The translations under genes were made by a program, and so were the position numbers. From Ignavibacteria bacterium (GTDB taxonomy: Bacteria > Bacteroidota > Ignavibacteria > Ignavibacteriales > SURF-24), in the NCBI GenBank assembly GCA_025612245.1, contig JAAXKQ010000015.1:69362-133361 (forward strand): a stretch of 64,000 bases of DNA, given 5' to 3'. The notes under the pieces were generated by a model, which saw only the letters and a list, made by a program, of their open reading frames with translations, was not told the DNA's origin and made no database searches. Numbering within the stretch: position 1 is the stretch's first letter; every line of letters starts with the position of its first letter. Below are positions 43,254 to 46,787 of the stretch, in pieces.

Positions 43254-45374
43254 ATGAAACTAACCCTTCTACTATTGTTTTCTTCAACATTACTCATTGG
43301 AAGCACTATGGCACAGGAGAAAAATCCATTTTTTTCGGAGTACGATACTCCGTTCAAGGTTCCTCCTTTCAATAAAATAAAGGAAGAACACTATCTGCCC
43401 GCCTTCAAAGAAGGCATTAAACAGCACGAGAAGGAAATTGAGGCTATTACAAATAATACAGCGGAGCCTAATTTCGAAAACACGATCCTCGCCCTTGAAA
43501 GAAGCGGCTCTCTGCTTACTAAGGTAGGCAACGTATATTTTAACGCCATGAATACCCAGATTTCAGACAATATTCTGGAGATATCCAGGGAAATTACTCC
43601 CCTTATGGCAAAGCATAGCGACGACATTAACCTGAATGAAAAACTTTTCCAGAGGGTTAAGGCGGTTTACTCAAAAAAGGATAACCTGAACCTGAATACC
43701 GAACAGAATAAGCTGCTTGAGAAAACTTATAAGGATTTTGTAAGAGGCGGCGCTAACCTGGACGCTATGAAAAAAGAAGAGTTCAGGAAAATTAATACCG
43801 AACTCTCCATGCTCGAACTGAAATTCGGCGAAAATGTCTTAAAGGAAAACAACTCCTTCGAGCTGGTGCTGGATAAAAAGGAAGACCTTGCGGGCCTCCC
43901 CGAATCTGTAATTGCTTCGGCTGCACAGGCCGCTAAAGAACGCGGCAAGGATGGTAAATGGGTCTTTACACTTCATGTGCCGAGCATTATGCCTTTCCTC
44001 CAGTATTCCGAAAGACGCGACCTCAGGGAAAAAATTTATAAGGCTTACATAAATAAAGGCGATAATAATAACGAACTCGATAACAAGTCCGTCCTTTCCA
44101 AAATTGCTTCCCTCAGGGTTAAAAGAGCAAACCTCCTGGGCTATAAATCTCATGCCGATTACGTCCTGGAGGAAAATATGGCAAAAACACCCAAAAACGT
44201 CTATAAACTCCTCGAACAGCTCTGGACCCCCGCCCTGCAAAGAGCTAAAATGGAGGCTTCCGACCTGCAGAAAATGGCTGAAAAAGACGGACAGAATTTC
44301 AAACTGGCCGCATGGGACTGGTGGTATTACGCCGAGAAGCTGAGAAAAGAAAAGTACGCACTGGACGACGAAACCCTCAGACCTTATTTTAAGCTCGAAA
44401 ACGTACGCCAGGGCGCTTTTGACGTGGCTCATAAACTCTACGGCATCACTTTTACTGAAAGAAAGGACCTGCCCGTATATAATAAAGATGTAAAAGCCTT
44501 TGAAGTTAAAGACGCCGACGGCAGCCACCTGGGCATACTTTATGTGGATTACTTCCCGAGAGCCGATAAAAGATCGGGCGCATGGATGAACTCTTACAGG
44601 GATGAATCTAAAGACGGCGAAAAAATTACCCCAATTGTCGTTAATGCTTTTAACTTTACCGCCCCCGCAGGCGATAAGCCCGCACTGCTTACTTTTGAGG
44701 AAGTCTCTACAATGTTCCATGAATTCGGACACGGACTGCATGGACTTTTGGCCAATACAACCTACAGGTCGCTTTCAGGTACGGCAGTGGCTAGGGATTT
44801 CGTTGAACTCCCGTCACAGATCATGGAAAACTGGGCCGGAGAACCTGAAGTCCTGAAATCATTCGCAAAACACTACCAGTCCGGAGAGACAATTCCCGAC
44901 GAACTGATAGAGAAAATTAAAAACGCAAGCCTTTTTAACCAGGGATTTGCAACAGTTGAATACCTCGCAGCTTCAATACTGGACATGGACTGGCATACGC
45001 TGACTGACACAGTACAGGTTGACGCTAAAACCCTTGAAGAAAAAACAGTAAATAGAATAGGCCTCATTCCAGAAATAGCTTTCAGGTACAGAAGCACATA
45101 CTTCTCGCACATTTTTGACGGTGGGTATTCCTCAGGCTATTACAGCTATATATGGGCCGAAGTACTCGACAGCGACGCATTTGAAGCTTTCAAGGAAAAA
45201 GGACTATTTGACCCTGCAACGGCAAAAGCCTTCAGGGACAACGTACTTTCTCTCGGCGGTACGGAAGAACCCATGGTTCTCTACAAACGCTTCCGCGGCG
45301 CCGACCCCTCAATTGAGCCCCTGTTAAAAAGAAGAGGCCTCATTACAGATAAAACAAAAGTGGGACTTAAATAA
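43254..45374 (+). CDS. M3 family metallopeptidase (peptidyl-dipeptidase Dcp / oligopeptidase A-like)
   Basis: HEFGH zinc motif with downstream Glu. 706 aa with signal peptide. Confidence 0.85.
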   Translation: MKLTLLLLFSSTLLIGSTMAQEKNPFFSEYDTPFKVPPFNKIKEEHYLPAFKEGIKQHEKEIEAITNNTAEPNFENTILALERSGSLLTKVGNVYFNAMNTQISDNILEISREITPLMAKHSDDINLNEKLFQRVKAVYSKKDNLNLNTEQNKLLEKTYKDFVRGGANLDAMKKEEFRKINTELSMLELKFGENVLKENNSFELVLDKKEDLAGLPESVIASAAQAAKERGKDGKWVFTLHVPSIMPFLQYSERRDLREKIYKAYINKGDNNNELDNKSVLSKIASLRVKRANLLGYKSHADYVLEENMAKTPKNVYKLLEQLWTPALQRAKMEASDLQKMAEKDGQNFKLAAWDWWYYAEKLRKEKYALDDETLRPYFKLENVRQGAFDVAHKLYGITFTERKDLPVYNKDVKAFEVKDADGSHLGILYVDYFPRADKRSGAWMNSYRDESKDGEKITPIVVNAFNFTAPAGDKPALLTFEEVSTMFHEFGHGLHGLLANTTYRSLSGTAVARDFVELPSQIMENWAGEPEVLKSFAKHYQSGETIPDELIEKIKNASLFNQGFATVEYLAASILDMDWHTLTDTVQVDAKTLEEKTVNRIGLIPEIAFRYRSTYFSHIFDGGYSSGYYSYIWAEVLDSDAFEAFKEKGLFDPATAKAFRDNVLSLGGTEEPMVLYKRFRGADPSIEPLLKRRGLITDKTKVGLK

Positions 45375-45517
45375 CCCTGCCCACAGTCTCCGGCACTCCC
45401 GGACAATGTATTTAGTATCATCCAGTCAGGCGGGCCCGTCCCGCCTGATCCAATCCCGCGTCCCTCTCTGCCATTAAAACTCCGGCTTTAATACTAATCA
45501 CTCTTCACTTTTCCCCT

Positions 45518-45985
45518 CTACTTCGCGTGCATCTCCCTTATTATAAGATCGCTCGTACAATTCGGACAGCGCGTTGCATGCTCGTCAATGGTCGAAAAAC
45601 AATACGGACACTTCTTTACCACGGCCGCCGGAGCTTTGGCTTCCTCTTTCTCCATCCTCTTTAATGCCTTTACTATCATAAATACCGCAAAGGCCACAAT
45701 CAGAAATCCTATTACCGTATTGATGAATAACCCGATATTCATTGTTACGGCGCCCGCTTTTAATGCCTGATCAATCGTGAAATACGGCCCCGGTGTAGTG
45801 CCTTCCTTAAGGACTATAAACCAGTTCGAAAAATCCACCCTCCCCAGCAACAGCCCTATCGGCGGCATGAGAATATCTTTAACCAGCGACTGGACAACAA
45901 CTCCGAAGGCAATACCCAGAATGATGCCTATGGCCAGGTCCACCATATTTCCCTTCAGAGCAAATGCCTTGAATTCCTTTAACAT
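45518..45985 (-). CDS. mscL: large-conductance mechanosensitive channel MscL with C-terminal CxxC...CxxC zinc-ribbon extension
   Basis: N-terminal [20 protein letters not shown] is canonical MscL. C-terminal [20 protein letters not shown]. Confidence 0.85.
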
Positions 45986-46187
45986 AAGTCCCTCCTTCTT
46001 TGGAGTTTTTAGCTTTGTAATAAAACCATTAAATGTTAAACGAAATACAGGAAATGAACCGGTTCTGTTATATGATACTAAAACAGGAATGGCCGGAGGA
46101 CCAGGGATTTGGCCCCCGTGTCCGGCAATAGAATTTTATTATTTAATTTTTCAATTGAAAGATAAAAAACAAGGGAGAGTTCTTTTT

Positions 46188-46787
46188 TCAGCAGAAAACA
46201 TTCTTTTTAAGCAGATCCTCTTTAAGCTGCTCCGCATTAAGAAAGCGTATGCCGTCAATTCCCGCCAGGCGCGCGTTATCCACGTTACGCTGATGATCGT
46301 CTATAAAAAGGCATTCCTCCGGCTTCAAATCAAGACGCCTTAAAAGCTCCGGAAAAACCGCGGGGTCCTTTTTCATCATCCTGAACTCATAAGAAAAACT
46401 GACTTTCTCAAAAATATTCAGGAACGGATGCACGGTCATTATGTACTCTATCCACTCCTTCGAATGATCCGAAAGCAGGTATAGCTTATACTTTTGCGAC
46501 AGGCTGTTTATAAGCGGAATTACACCTTCCACTTCTTCATGGAAATTCCGGCGTATGGCTTCCTTAAGTTCGGCCCGACTTATATTCCATCTGGCGGATT
46601 TTATAAGGTTATCTATATAGAAATCCTCATCAATTTCGCCCGTTAACAGCTCCTCGAATTCCTTTCCCCAGAAACTGTTAATTATCTCCTTTTCCGGGAG
46701 CCCCAGCGTTACGGCCAGCTCCCTCTCCACACCCAATAGCCCGTTTATTATTACTTCAGAAAGGTCAAAAATGAGATTTTTTACCAT
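46188..46787 (-). CDS. HAD-IA family hydrolase
   Basis: Motif I DLSEV (DxSxV variant), motif III K, motif IV DD (FIDDHQRN). Confidence 0.7.
   Translation of the reverse strand: MVKNLIFDLSEVIINGLLGVERELAVTLGLPEKEIINSFWGKEFEELLTGEIDEDFYIDNLIKSARWNISRAELKEAIRRNFHEEVEGVIPLINSLSQKYKLYLLSDHSKEWIEYIMTVHPFLNIFEKVSFSYEFRMMKKDPAVFPELLRRLDLKPEECLFIDDHQRNVDNARLAGIDGIRFLNAEQLKEDLLKKNVFC

Follow-up and report, generated by a model that had tools for sequence, protein, structure and literature searches.

In the window, by which we mean the whole 64-kb stretch of DNA analysed, a single gene on the reverse strand encodes the channel protein MscL, and no second mscL was found anywhere in these 64 kb (Table 1). 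The 155-aa product scores 132.5 bits with the Pfam family PF01741 (cut-off 27.4; E = 1.3e-38) and 110.6 bits with TIGR00220 (cut-off 71), finds the structures of Escherichia coli MscL at E = 7e-28, and stays under every cut-off of the narrower PRK equivalog models (e.g. NF010557, 141 against 159). Judged by its sequence, the ORF is a genuine and unambiguous MscL; the identity proposed in an earlier note on this DNA is borne out by both family models, the alignment to E. coli MscL and the predicted topology.

The gene is convergent with an M3 peptidase gene, and a HAD-hydrolase gene lies upstream of it on the same strand, with 200 bp between the two. This gap holds a terminator-like hairpin that separates the HAD-hydrolase gene from mscL, which suggests that mscL is transcribed on its own; a search of positions 45300–46300 for a sigma-70-type promoter found none. 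Midway between the convergent stops lies a perfect inverted repeat with no T-run on either side, which could serve as a terminator in both directions or as a binding site for a protein. Two small ORFs with several cysteines each have counterparts on a 575-kb JGI contig introduced below, where genes of 114 and 86 residues are called at the same position.

Around those mscL genes whose products carry the tail described below, no neighbouring gene family recurred in more than 6 of 118 diverse genome loci. The two largest neighbour ‘families’ were rejected as antisense shadow ORFs of mscL itself rather than partner genes: equivalents of the 188-aa ORF that runs antisense to mscL in the window form the largest cluster (84 of 118 loci), and they cluster because mscL itself is conserved. 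The sequence context gives no sign of a partner encoded alongside mscL or of an operon under regulation.

Table 1. Features in and around mscL in the window (positions of the window; residues of the 155-aa MscL)
Feature	Position	Strand	Remarks
M3 peptidase gene	43254-45374		convergent with mscL; stop at 45374
Inverted repeat	45426-45448		perfect 9-bp repeat, 5-nt loop: TCAGGCGGG CCCGT CCCGCCTGA; between M3 peptidase stop (45374) and mscL stop (45518)
mscL CDS	45518..45985	-	155 aa; ATG start; TAG stop 45518-45520; ORF list, Pfam, TIGR00220
Variable C-terminal end, residues 148-155 (IIREMHAK)	45521..45544	-	pLDDT of last block 42
Predicted Cys4 zinc-ribbon, residues 126-147	45545..45610	-	invariant residues; tail-only pLDDT 94; structural matches
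Codons of C126, C129, C140, C143	45608-45610, 45599-45601, 45566-45568, 45557-45559	-	
Ala/Pro-rich tether, residues 117-125	45611..45637	-	equals E. coli linker before C-terminal helix; alignment
TM2 helix, residues 84-116, into charged cluster	45638..45736	-	AlphaFold helix 84-116; aligned to E. coli TM2
Periplasmic loop, residues 47-83	45737..45847	-	model: beta hairpin 56-60/80-83, short helix 71-76
11-residue insert in periplasmic loop relative to E. coli, Y68-G78	45752-45784	-	gap in E. coli alignment row
TM1 pore-lining helix, residues 14-46; G-N-x2-D-L-A-I-G core motif and MPP	45848..45946	-	AlphaFold helix 14-46
N-terminal amphipathic helix, residues 2-11; F5 and F8 conserved	45953..45982	-	AlphaFold helix 2-11; alignments
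Shine-Dalgarno AAGGAGGG	45990..45997	-	4 nt before mscL ATG; read from sequence (reverse complement of ccctcctt)
188-aa shadow ORF	45777-46343	+	antisense to mscL; not a gene
Terminator-like hairpin, then TTCCTGTTTT	46090-46103	-	between HAD-hydrolase gene and mscL
HAD-hydrolase gene	46188-46787	-	upstream of mscL
Small ORF, 123 aa	47012-47383	+	several cysteines; overlaps next ORF
Small ORF, 86 aa	47361-47621	+	several cysteines; sub-threshold Zn_ribbon_2 (18.6 bits against 22.5)

A full-length AlphaFold2 model of the protein, built with 79 homologues as input (mean pLDDT 74.9), reproduces the MscL topology of N-terminal amphipathic helix, TM1, periplasmic loop and TM2, and its best Foldseek matches are the MscL structures 2oar and 4y7k. 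F5 and F8 are invariant in both alignments, including the one that contains E. coli MscL. In the multiple alignment, G12, N13, D16, A18, G20, G24, F27, M40, P41 and P42 are invariant with E. coli included, A26 and G28 are likewise identical to their E. coli counterparts, and the pore/gate motif of TM1 (G-N-x2-D-L-A-x-G-x3-G-x-A-F-G) and the MPP turn are both present. According to the model, the membrane part is canonical, and the protein would presumably form the usual pentameric, tension-gated emergency release valve. The periplasmic insert relative to E. coli MscL falls within a GPY...A..AGAVT block that is conserved among close relatives, and it is modelled as a short helix beside the beta hairpin of the loop.

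With the exception of the C-terminal helix, every testable defining feature of MscL is present. The C-terminus instead bears the motif CPYC-x10-CPNC, in exactly the sequence that the earlier note had given, whose cysteines form two CxxC knuckles around a short spacer (C126-x2-C129-x10-C140-x2-C143). Across 121 sequences—the window MscL and its best 120 homologues—C126, C129, A137, C140, C143 and T144 are invariant and K124, R139, S145 and L147 nearly so. All of these 120 homologues keep the pattern C-x2-C-x10-C-x2-C with identical spacing, and 115 of the 121 proteins have no cysteine outside the tail. Beyond the last cysteine, by contrast, homologues differ in both sequence and length (4–20 residues), and the last eight residues of the window protein are probably disordered, given their low model confidence. 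A chance arrangement of cysteines was ruled out by the conservation over 121 sequences and by shuffling, as a 62-nt degenerate pattern of the tail matched once in the window (45555–45616) and in none of 100 shuffles.

A tail of this kind might also arise by error, be it through a missed frameshift or stop, as the earlier note had allowed, or through a misassembly by which mscL was joined to an unrelated zinc-ribbon ORF; indeed, the library of representative proteins searched below holds many apparent chimeras and fragments that bear the ribbon tail. Against such an origin, however, at least seven contigs of independent origin carry the identical, full-length 155-aa protein, among them the 575-kb JGI contig (metagenome 3300038998) and a Logan assembly of another sample (SRR9964838), in both of which the neighbouring genes are also the same. 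Relatives at 85–92% identity share the length and tail of the window MscL, the tail is found in 120 of the 120 best homologues and in 118 of the 120 best homologues from the Clostridium group, and 118 of the 120 listed genome matches of a tail-specific pattern are the end of a full MscL ORF. Frameshift, missed stop and misassembly are ruled out on these grounds, and the probability that we would still assign to an artefact is negligible.

What the tail looks like was addressed with a separate AlphaFold model for which 45 aligned tails served as input. This tail-only model reaches a pLDDT of 94 over the Cys4 core and places beta strands at tail positions 8–10 and 17–19. When compared with the PDB by Foldseek, all of its matches are Zn(Cys)4 ribbons (RadD, RanBP2/NZF, ArnA, bL32 and the reverse-gyrase finger), each of them non-significant by itself (E-values of 0.1–3), which is no surprise for 25 residues. 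Locally, the best superpositions on the predicted ribbon are those of E. coli RadD through its zinc finger (PDB 7r7j; 0.9–1.0 Å over 26 residues with 38% identity) and of RanBP2/NZF zinc fingers (1.2–1.4 Å over 24–25 residues). Their contexts (a DNA-repair helicase, the nuclear pore and ubiquitin binding) are unrelated; as the E-values lie at 0.5–2, this is a resemblance of fold class that does not establish homology. The isolated single-copy tail likewise gave sub-threshold matches to more than 25 Pfam zinc-ribbon families, the best being DUF1272 (20.6 against a cut-off of 25.3) and DZR (18.9 against 27.3).

Among 1.84 billion representative proteins, a profile of the tail retrieved 4,703 at E<=0.001, a number inflated by fragments, chimeras and non-MscL proteins with tandem ribbons. 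The top matches were not MscL at all but proteins carrying 2–14 tandem copies of the ribbon, mostly followed by transmembrane segments, which were retrieved at E = 1e-28 to 1e-14, have the consensus CP[YF]CGEEI..NA[IV]KC[KR]HCGE[FW]L and exceed the Pfam thresholds of Zn_ribbon_3, DZR, UPF0547 and Zn_Ribbon_1. MscL tails and these tandem mini zinc-ribbons on membrane-anchored proteins (Zn_ribbon_3 PF13248, Zn_Ribbon_1 PF13240, UPF0547 PF10571, DZR PF12773) follow the same pattern, C-P-x-C-x3-I-x3-A-x-[KR]-C-x2-C-x3-L with the x10 spacing, and both are tethered at the cytoplasmic face of a membrane protein. Unlike the tandem proteins, MscL has a single, C-terminal copy that stays under every Pfam cut-off, and it would reach five copies per pentamer through oligomerisation. 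Residues I133, A137, R/K139 and L147 are conserved in the tandem-ribbon proteins too and are therefore probably determinants of the fold (R139 in the window protein), whereas F130-S131 and T144-S145 are specific to MscL, the tandem proteins having G-E at both places.

The suggestion of a zinc-ribbon-like Cys4 module thus held up on three counts, namely the confident tail model, the exclusively Zn(Cys)4 structural matches and the retrieval by the tail profile. The predicted MscL tail is a single copy of a generic bacterial mini zinc-ribbon of the Zn_ribbon_3/DZR/UPF0547 type, and we infer from sequence and model that it would bind one Zn2+ via its four cysteines.

The same search returned two further kinds of protein. 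One (P0247) is an MscL with two C-terminal tandem zinc ribbons (CPYCMTEVDAEATRCASC ... CPYCRTQIDAQATRCPAC). The other kind comprises P0325, P0328, P0338, P0271, P0352 and about 80 further short representatives, in which the MscL linker with its ribbon (...APxPTTKxCP.C...) follows immediately on an unrelated N-terminus (P-loop GPTASGKT, CoaD-like, Nth-like or tail-fibre-like). These short hybrids are probably chimeras of assembly or gene calling at the purine-rich KKEEE linker.

Where the ribbon sits relative to the canonical C-terminal domain is answered by several comparisons. Pairwise alignment with E. coli MscL ends at residue 121 of the window protein, equivalent to E. coli residue 115 and before the E. 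coli C-terminal helix, and the multiple alignment places the ribbon in the columns of E. coli EEVLLTEIRDLLKEQ, after a common Ala/Pro linker and ‘TK’. The amphipathic helix LLxEIRDLL is absent from alignment and model alike; beyond TM2, the full-length AlphaFold2 model has a tail of two short strands (pLDDT ~80) and no helix. Of the 123 positions of the Pfam MscL profile, E. coli MscL fills 1–123, which means that the model ends with a helix-type tail, whereas the window MscL fills it only to about position 119 and ribbon-type MscLs in general end at positions 112–119. The 19 residues by which the window protein exceeds E. coli MscL are accounted for by the 11-residue periplasmic insert and a somewhat longer tail. 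[quoted passage not shown]

Two types of tail can accordingly be told apart in the family. In a metagenome sample drawn without regard to the tail (see below), none of the 110 MscLs listed had a ribbon and an LLxEIRD helix together. Spacing is similar as well: the ribbon-type tether, measured from the end of TM2 to the first cysteine, has a median of 20 residues (range 15–23), and helix-type channels have 24 residues from the end of TM2 to the LLxEIRD motif. On a neighbour-joining tree of MscL cores, tail types cluster without being monophyletic; parsimony counts 16 changes where shuffled labels give about 31, and the 16 are an upper estimate in view of the poor resolution of trees of such short proteins. 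This intermixing of ribbon and helix types implies that the module has been exchanged or lost repeatedly, and the findings on the two tail types fit a picture in which ribbon and helix are alternatives suspended from the same point beneath the pore.

To see how far the tail extends, a tail-specific degenerate DNA pattern (K-x-C-x2-C-x7-A-x-R-C-x2-C-T) was scanned over one genome per species. It matched at least 120 genome loci; among the matches listed, 118 close an ORF that has an MscL core, and the other two are a truncated MscL tail and a chance match. Carriers among these listed matches range from the archaeal Methanotrichaceae over Paenibacillus, Clostridium, Lachnospiraceae and Muribaculaceae to Sorangium, Anaeromyxobacter, Gemmatimonadota, Acidobacteriota and Verrucomicrobiota, and further include Brocadia, Chloroflexota, Actinomycetota, Paceibacterota, Omnitrophota, Pseudidiomarina and Methylobacillus. 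Among the best 120 relatives of the Clostridium gasigenes MscL, 118 likewise bear the tail, including those of C. botulinum and Cellulosilyticum lentocellum. As to how widespread the tail is, a point that the earlier note had raised, these matches place it in many bacterial phyla and in archaea.

The share of MscLs with this design was estimated with a tail-blind pattern derived from the shared N-terminal/TM1 motif (F-x3-G-N-x2-D-x-A-x5-G-x2-F), which captures 98 of 118 ribbon-type proteins as well as E. coli MscL. Run over a metagenome collection, it matched at least 120 loci; of the matches listed, 117 were MscL, 108 of them complete at the C-terminus. Among these listed, C-terminally complete MscLs the ribbon occurs in 38 of 108 (35%; Wilson 95% interval ~27–45%), a share that may be biased by the order in which matches were listed and that comes from a pattern whose capture rate is known for the ribbon type only. 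Of the same 108, about 60 end in the LLxEIRDLL helix and a few are tail-less. Going by these sequences, the ribbon design is an ordinary one, found in about a third of MscLs. The earlier note had held that its observation would be refuted if homologues showed a common, already described variant: that the variant is common is confirmed by the 35% of the listed tail-blind sample and by its many phyla, and no prior description was found in the literature searched. Its very frequency largely deflates the original finding by that standard, and the window gene is an ordinary housekeeping channel and a routine member of its subfamily. The wider interest lies in the subfamily, not in the locus.

Some metagenomic MscLs (L122, L124, L194 and L206) end at about 110–116 aa, shortly after TM2, with neither helix nor ribbon. 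They resemble the MscL of Methanosarcina acetivorans, and some may be frameshifted.

How does the ribbon type compare with the channels that have been studied? The helix-bundle MscLs of E. coli (EcMscL; PDB 9tiu/28oa) and Mycobacterium tuberculosis (MtMscL; PDB 2oar) belong to the same family and have the same membrane core and the same Ala/Pro tether, which is of similar length. With EcMscL, the window protein shares 43% identity as well as F5, F8, G-N-x2-D-x-A-x-G and MPP; unlike EcMscL, it lacks the LLxEIRDLL bundle helix, has the Cys4 ribbon instead and carries the 11-residue periplasmic insert. Another natural MscL without a helical bundle is that of M. acetivorans (MaMscL; PDB 4y7k/4y7j), whose core matches that of the window MscL and which has been described as being without the entire C-terminal domain (PMC6167328). 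The bundle is hence dispensable in the MscL family, and the helix is typical but not universal. Unlike MaMscL, however, the window protein has a different, conserved and predicted folded domain in the place of the C-terminal domain.

In specialist papers, the cytoplasmic helix is treated as generally conserved or simply absent (PMC6167328), and the ribbon tail goes unmentioned in both PMC5722894 and PMC6167328, each of which deals with the C-terminal domain of MscL. A search of the full-text literature for a zinc ribbon, zinc finger or CXXC tail of MscL found none, although an older alignment figure may show the motif. Similarly, no solved MscL structure containing the ribbon was found among the PDB matches, and no Pfam or NCBIfam model covering the tail was found. 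Apparently, the ribbon architecture is an undescribed variant of a very well-known kind of protein. The functionally studied, patch-clamped MscL of C. perfringens is one that we suspect to be of the ribbon type; it is not among the best 120 relatives of the C. gasigenes MscL.

MscL is the textbook example of a tension-gated channel. What its C-terminal domain does is still under debate, with proposals including a sieve, a stabiliser of the oligomer and a tuner of sensitivity. For the ribbon type, the reading we favour, at a probability of roughly 0.55, is that of a standard pentameric tension-gated valve in which five zinc-stabilised ribbons serve as a cytoplasmic cap instead of a five-helix bundle. 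Each subunit would continue from TM2 into an Ala/Pro tether of about 20 residues and then into one 22-residue Cys4 ribbon, at the point where other MscLs bear their amphipathic helix, and the ribbons would hang as a zinc-stabilised globular cap under the cytoplasmic mouth of the pore. There, they would take over the roles that have been proposed for the helical bundle—sieve, oligomer stabiliser and tuner of tension sensitivity (PMC5722894, PMC6167328)—by stabilising assembly, limiting the loss of large solutes and setting the response to tension. That the ribbons cluster in the pentamer and are equivalent in function to the bundle is what we infer for such a cap. The channel would be self-contained, given that no neighbour is conserved across the 118 loci and that a terminator-like hairpin lies upstream of the window gene.

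Several points pull against a purely structural substitute. A globular ribbon cannot form a coiled-coil, so that its equivalence to the bundle is an assumption. Truncation of the bundle has only mild, species-dependent effects (PMC6167328), which, taken together with the strong conservation of the ribbon (A137 and T144 as well as R139, S145 and L147), makes a more specific function possible; yet, as I133, A137, R/K139 and L147 recur in non-MscL tandem ribbons, the conservation at these positions looks like that of fold determinants instead. The presence of the same ribbon type on many unrelated membrane proteins could also mean a shared binding function rather than a channel-specific structure.

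One such function would be that of a docking module, in which the ribbon, after the manner of the RanBP2/NZF and ArnA types, binds a cytoplasmic partner, whether protein, nucleic acid or nucleotide, by which the channel is localised or regulated. Partner-binding ribbons are indeed among the nearest structural matches, i.e. RanBP2 (Ran), NZF (ubiquitin), ArnA (ArnB) and ZRANB2 (RNA), and the reuse of the ribbon in tandem on unrelated membrane-anchored proteins is what a reusable binding module would lead one to expect; moreover, the MscL-specific pairs F130-S131 and T144-S145 could form a specific surface. These matches are individually non-significant, however (E>0.1), a fold of this size and generic nature does not allow a ligand to be inferred, and no neighbour family recurs in more than 6 of the 118 loci. 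We regard docking as unlikely on balance.

Metal or redox control of gating, which the earlier note had also raised, would take the form of a switch: five Zn(Cys)4 sites would sense oxidants or zinc availability, and oxidation or loss of zinc would unfold the ribbons and shift the gating threshold or conductance, thereby coupling the valve to the redox or metal state of the cell. Zn-Cys4 sites do act as redox switches in some proteins, Hsp33 and RsrA being examples, and most Cys4 ribbons are purely structural. The four cysteines are invariant, and the window MscL has no others. Also in favour of such a switch, the tension sensitivity of MscL is tuned by its C-terminal domain (PMC6167328). On the other hand, strict anaerobes and aerobes carry the tail alike (Sorangium, Paenibacillus, Pseudidiomarina, Clostridium, Methanotrichaceae and Brocadia among them), which argues against a sensor specific to one niche, the 118 loci show no linkage to genes of redox or metal homeostasis, and the searchable literature contains no experimental hint. 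Along with the structural role of most Cys4 ribbons, this makes the switch quite improbable. What speaks positively for docking or for the switch is, in either case, the nature of the fold.

Taking both of these together, a regulatory ring of ribbons under the pore of about a third of MscLs—be it a redox/zinc switch or a docking site—would amount to a further, chemical layer of control that has so far been overlooked, a proposition that we consider doubtful but put forward tentatively. If true, it would place a large part of the emergency osmotic valves of prokaryotes under such control. For the family, it is mildly surprising that a third of MscLs end in a predicted zinc ribbon in place of the helical bundle of the textbooks. 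Nature has thereby supplied a ready-made experiment on the C-terminal domain in about a third of natural MscLs, and the tail exposes an annotation gap, as it lacks coverage in Pfam, NCBIfam and the PDB alike.

The tandem-ribbon class retrieved by the tail profile (P0241, P0242, P0244, P0245, P0246, P0248 and P0265) usually carries its ribbons N-terminal to the transmembrane segments, and one member, P0248, ends in a superinfection-immunity (Imm_superinfect) domain. These proteins may hold a clue to the role of the ribbon on MscL.
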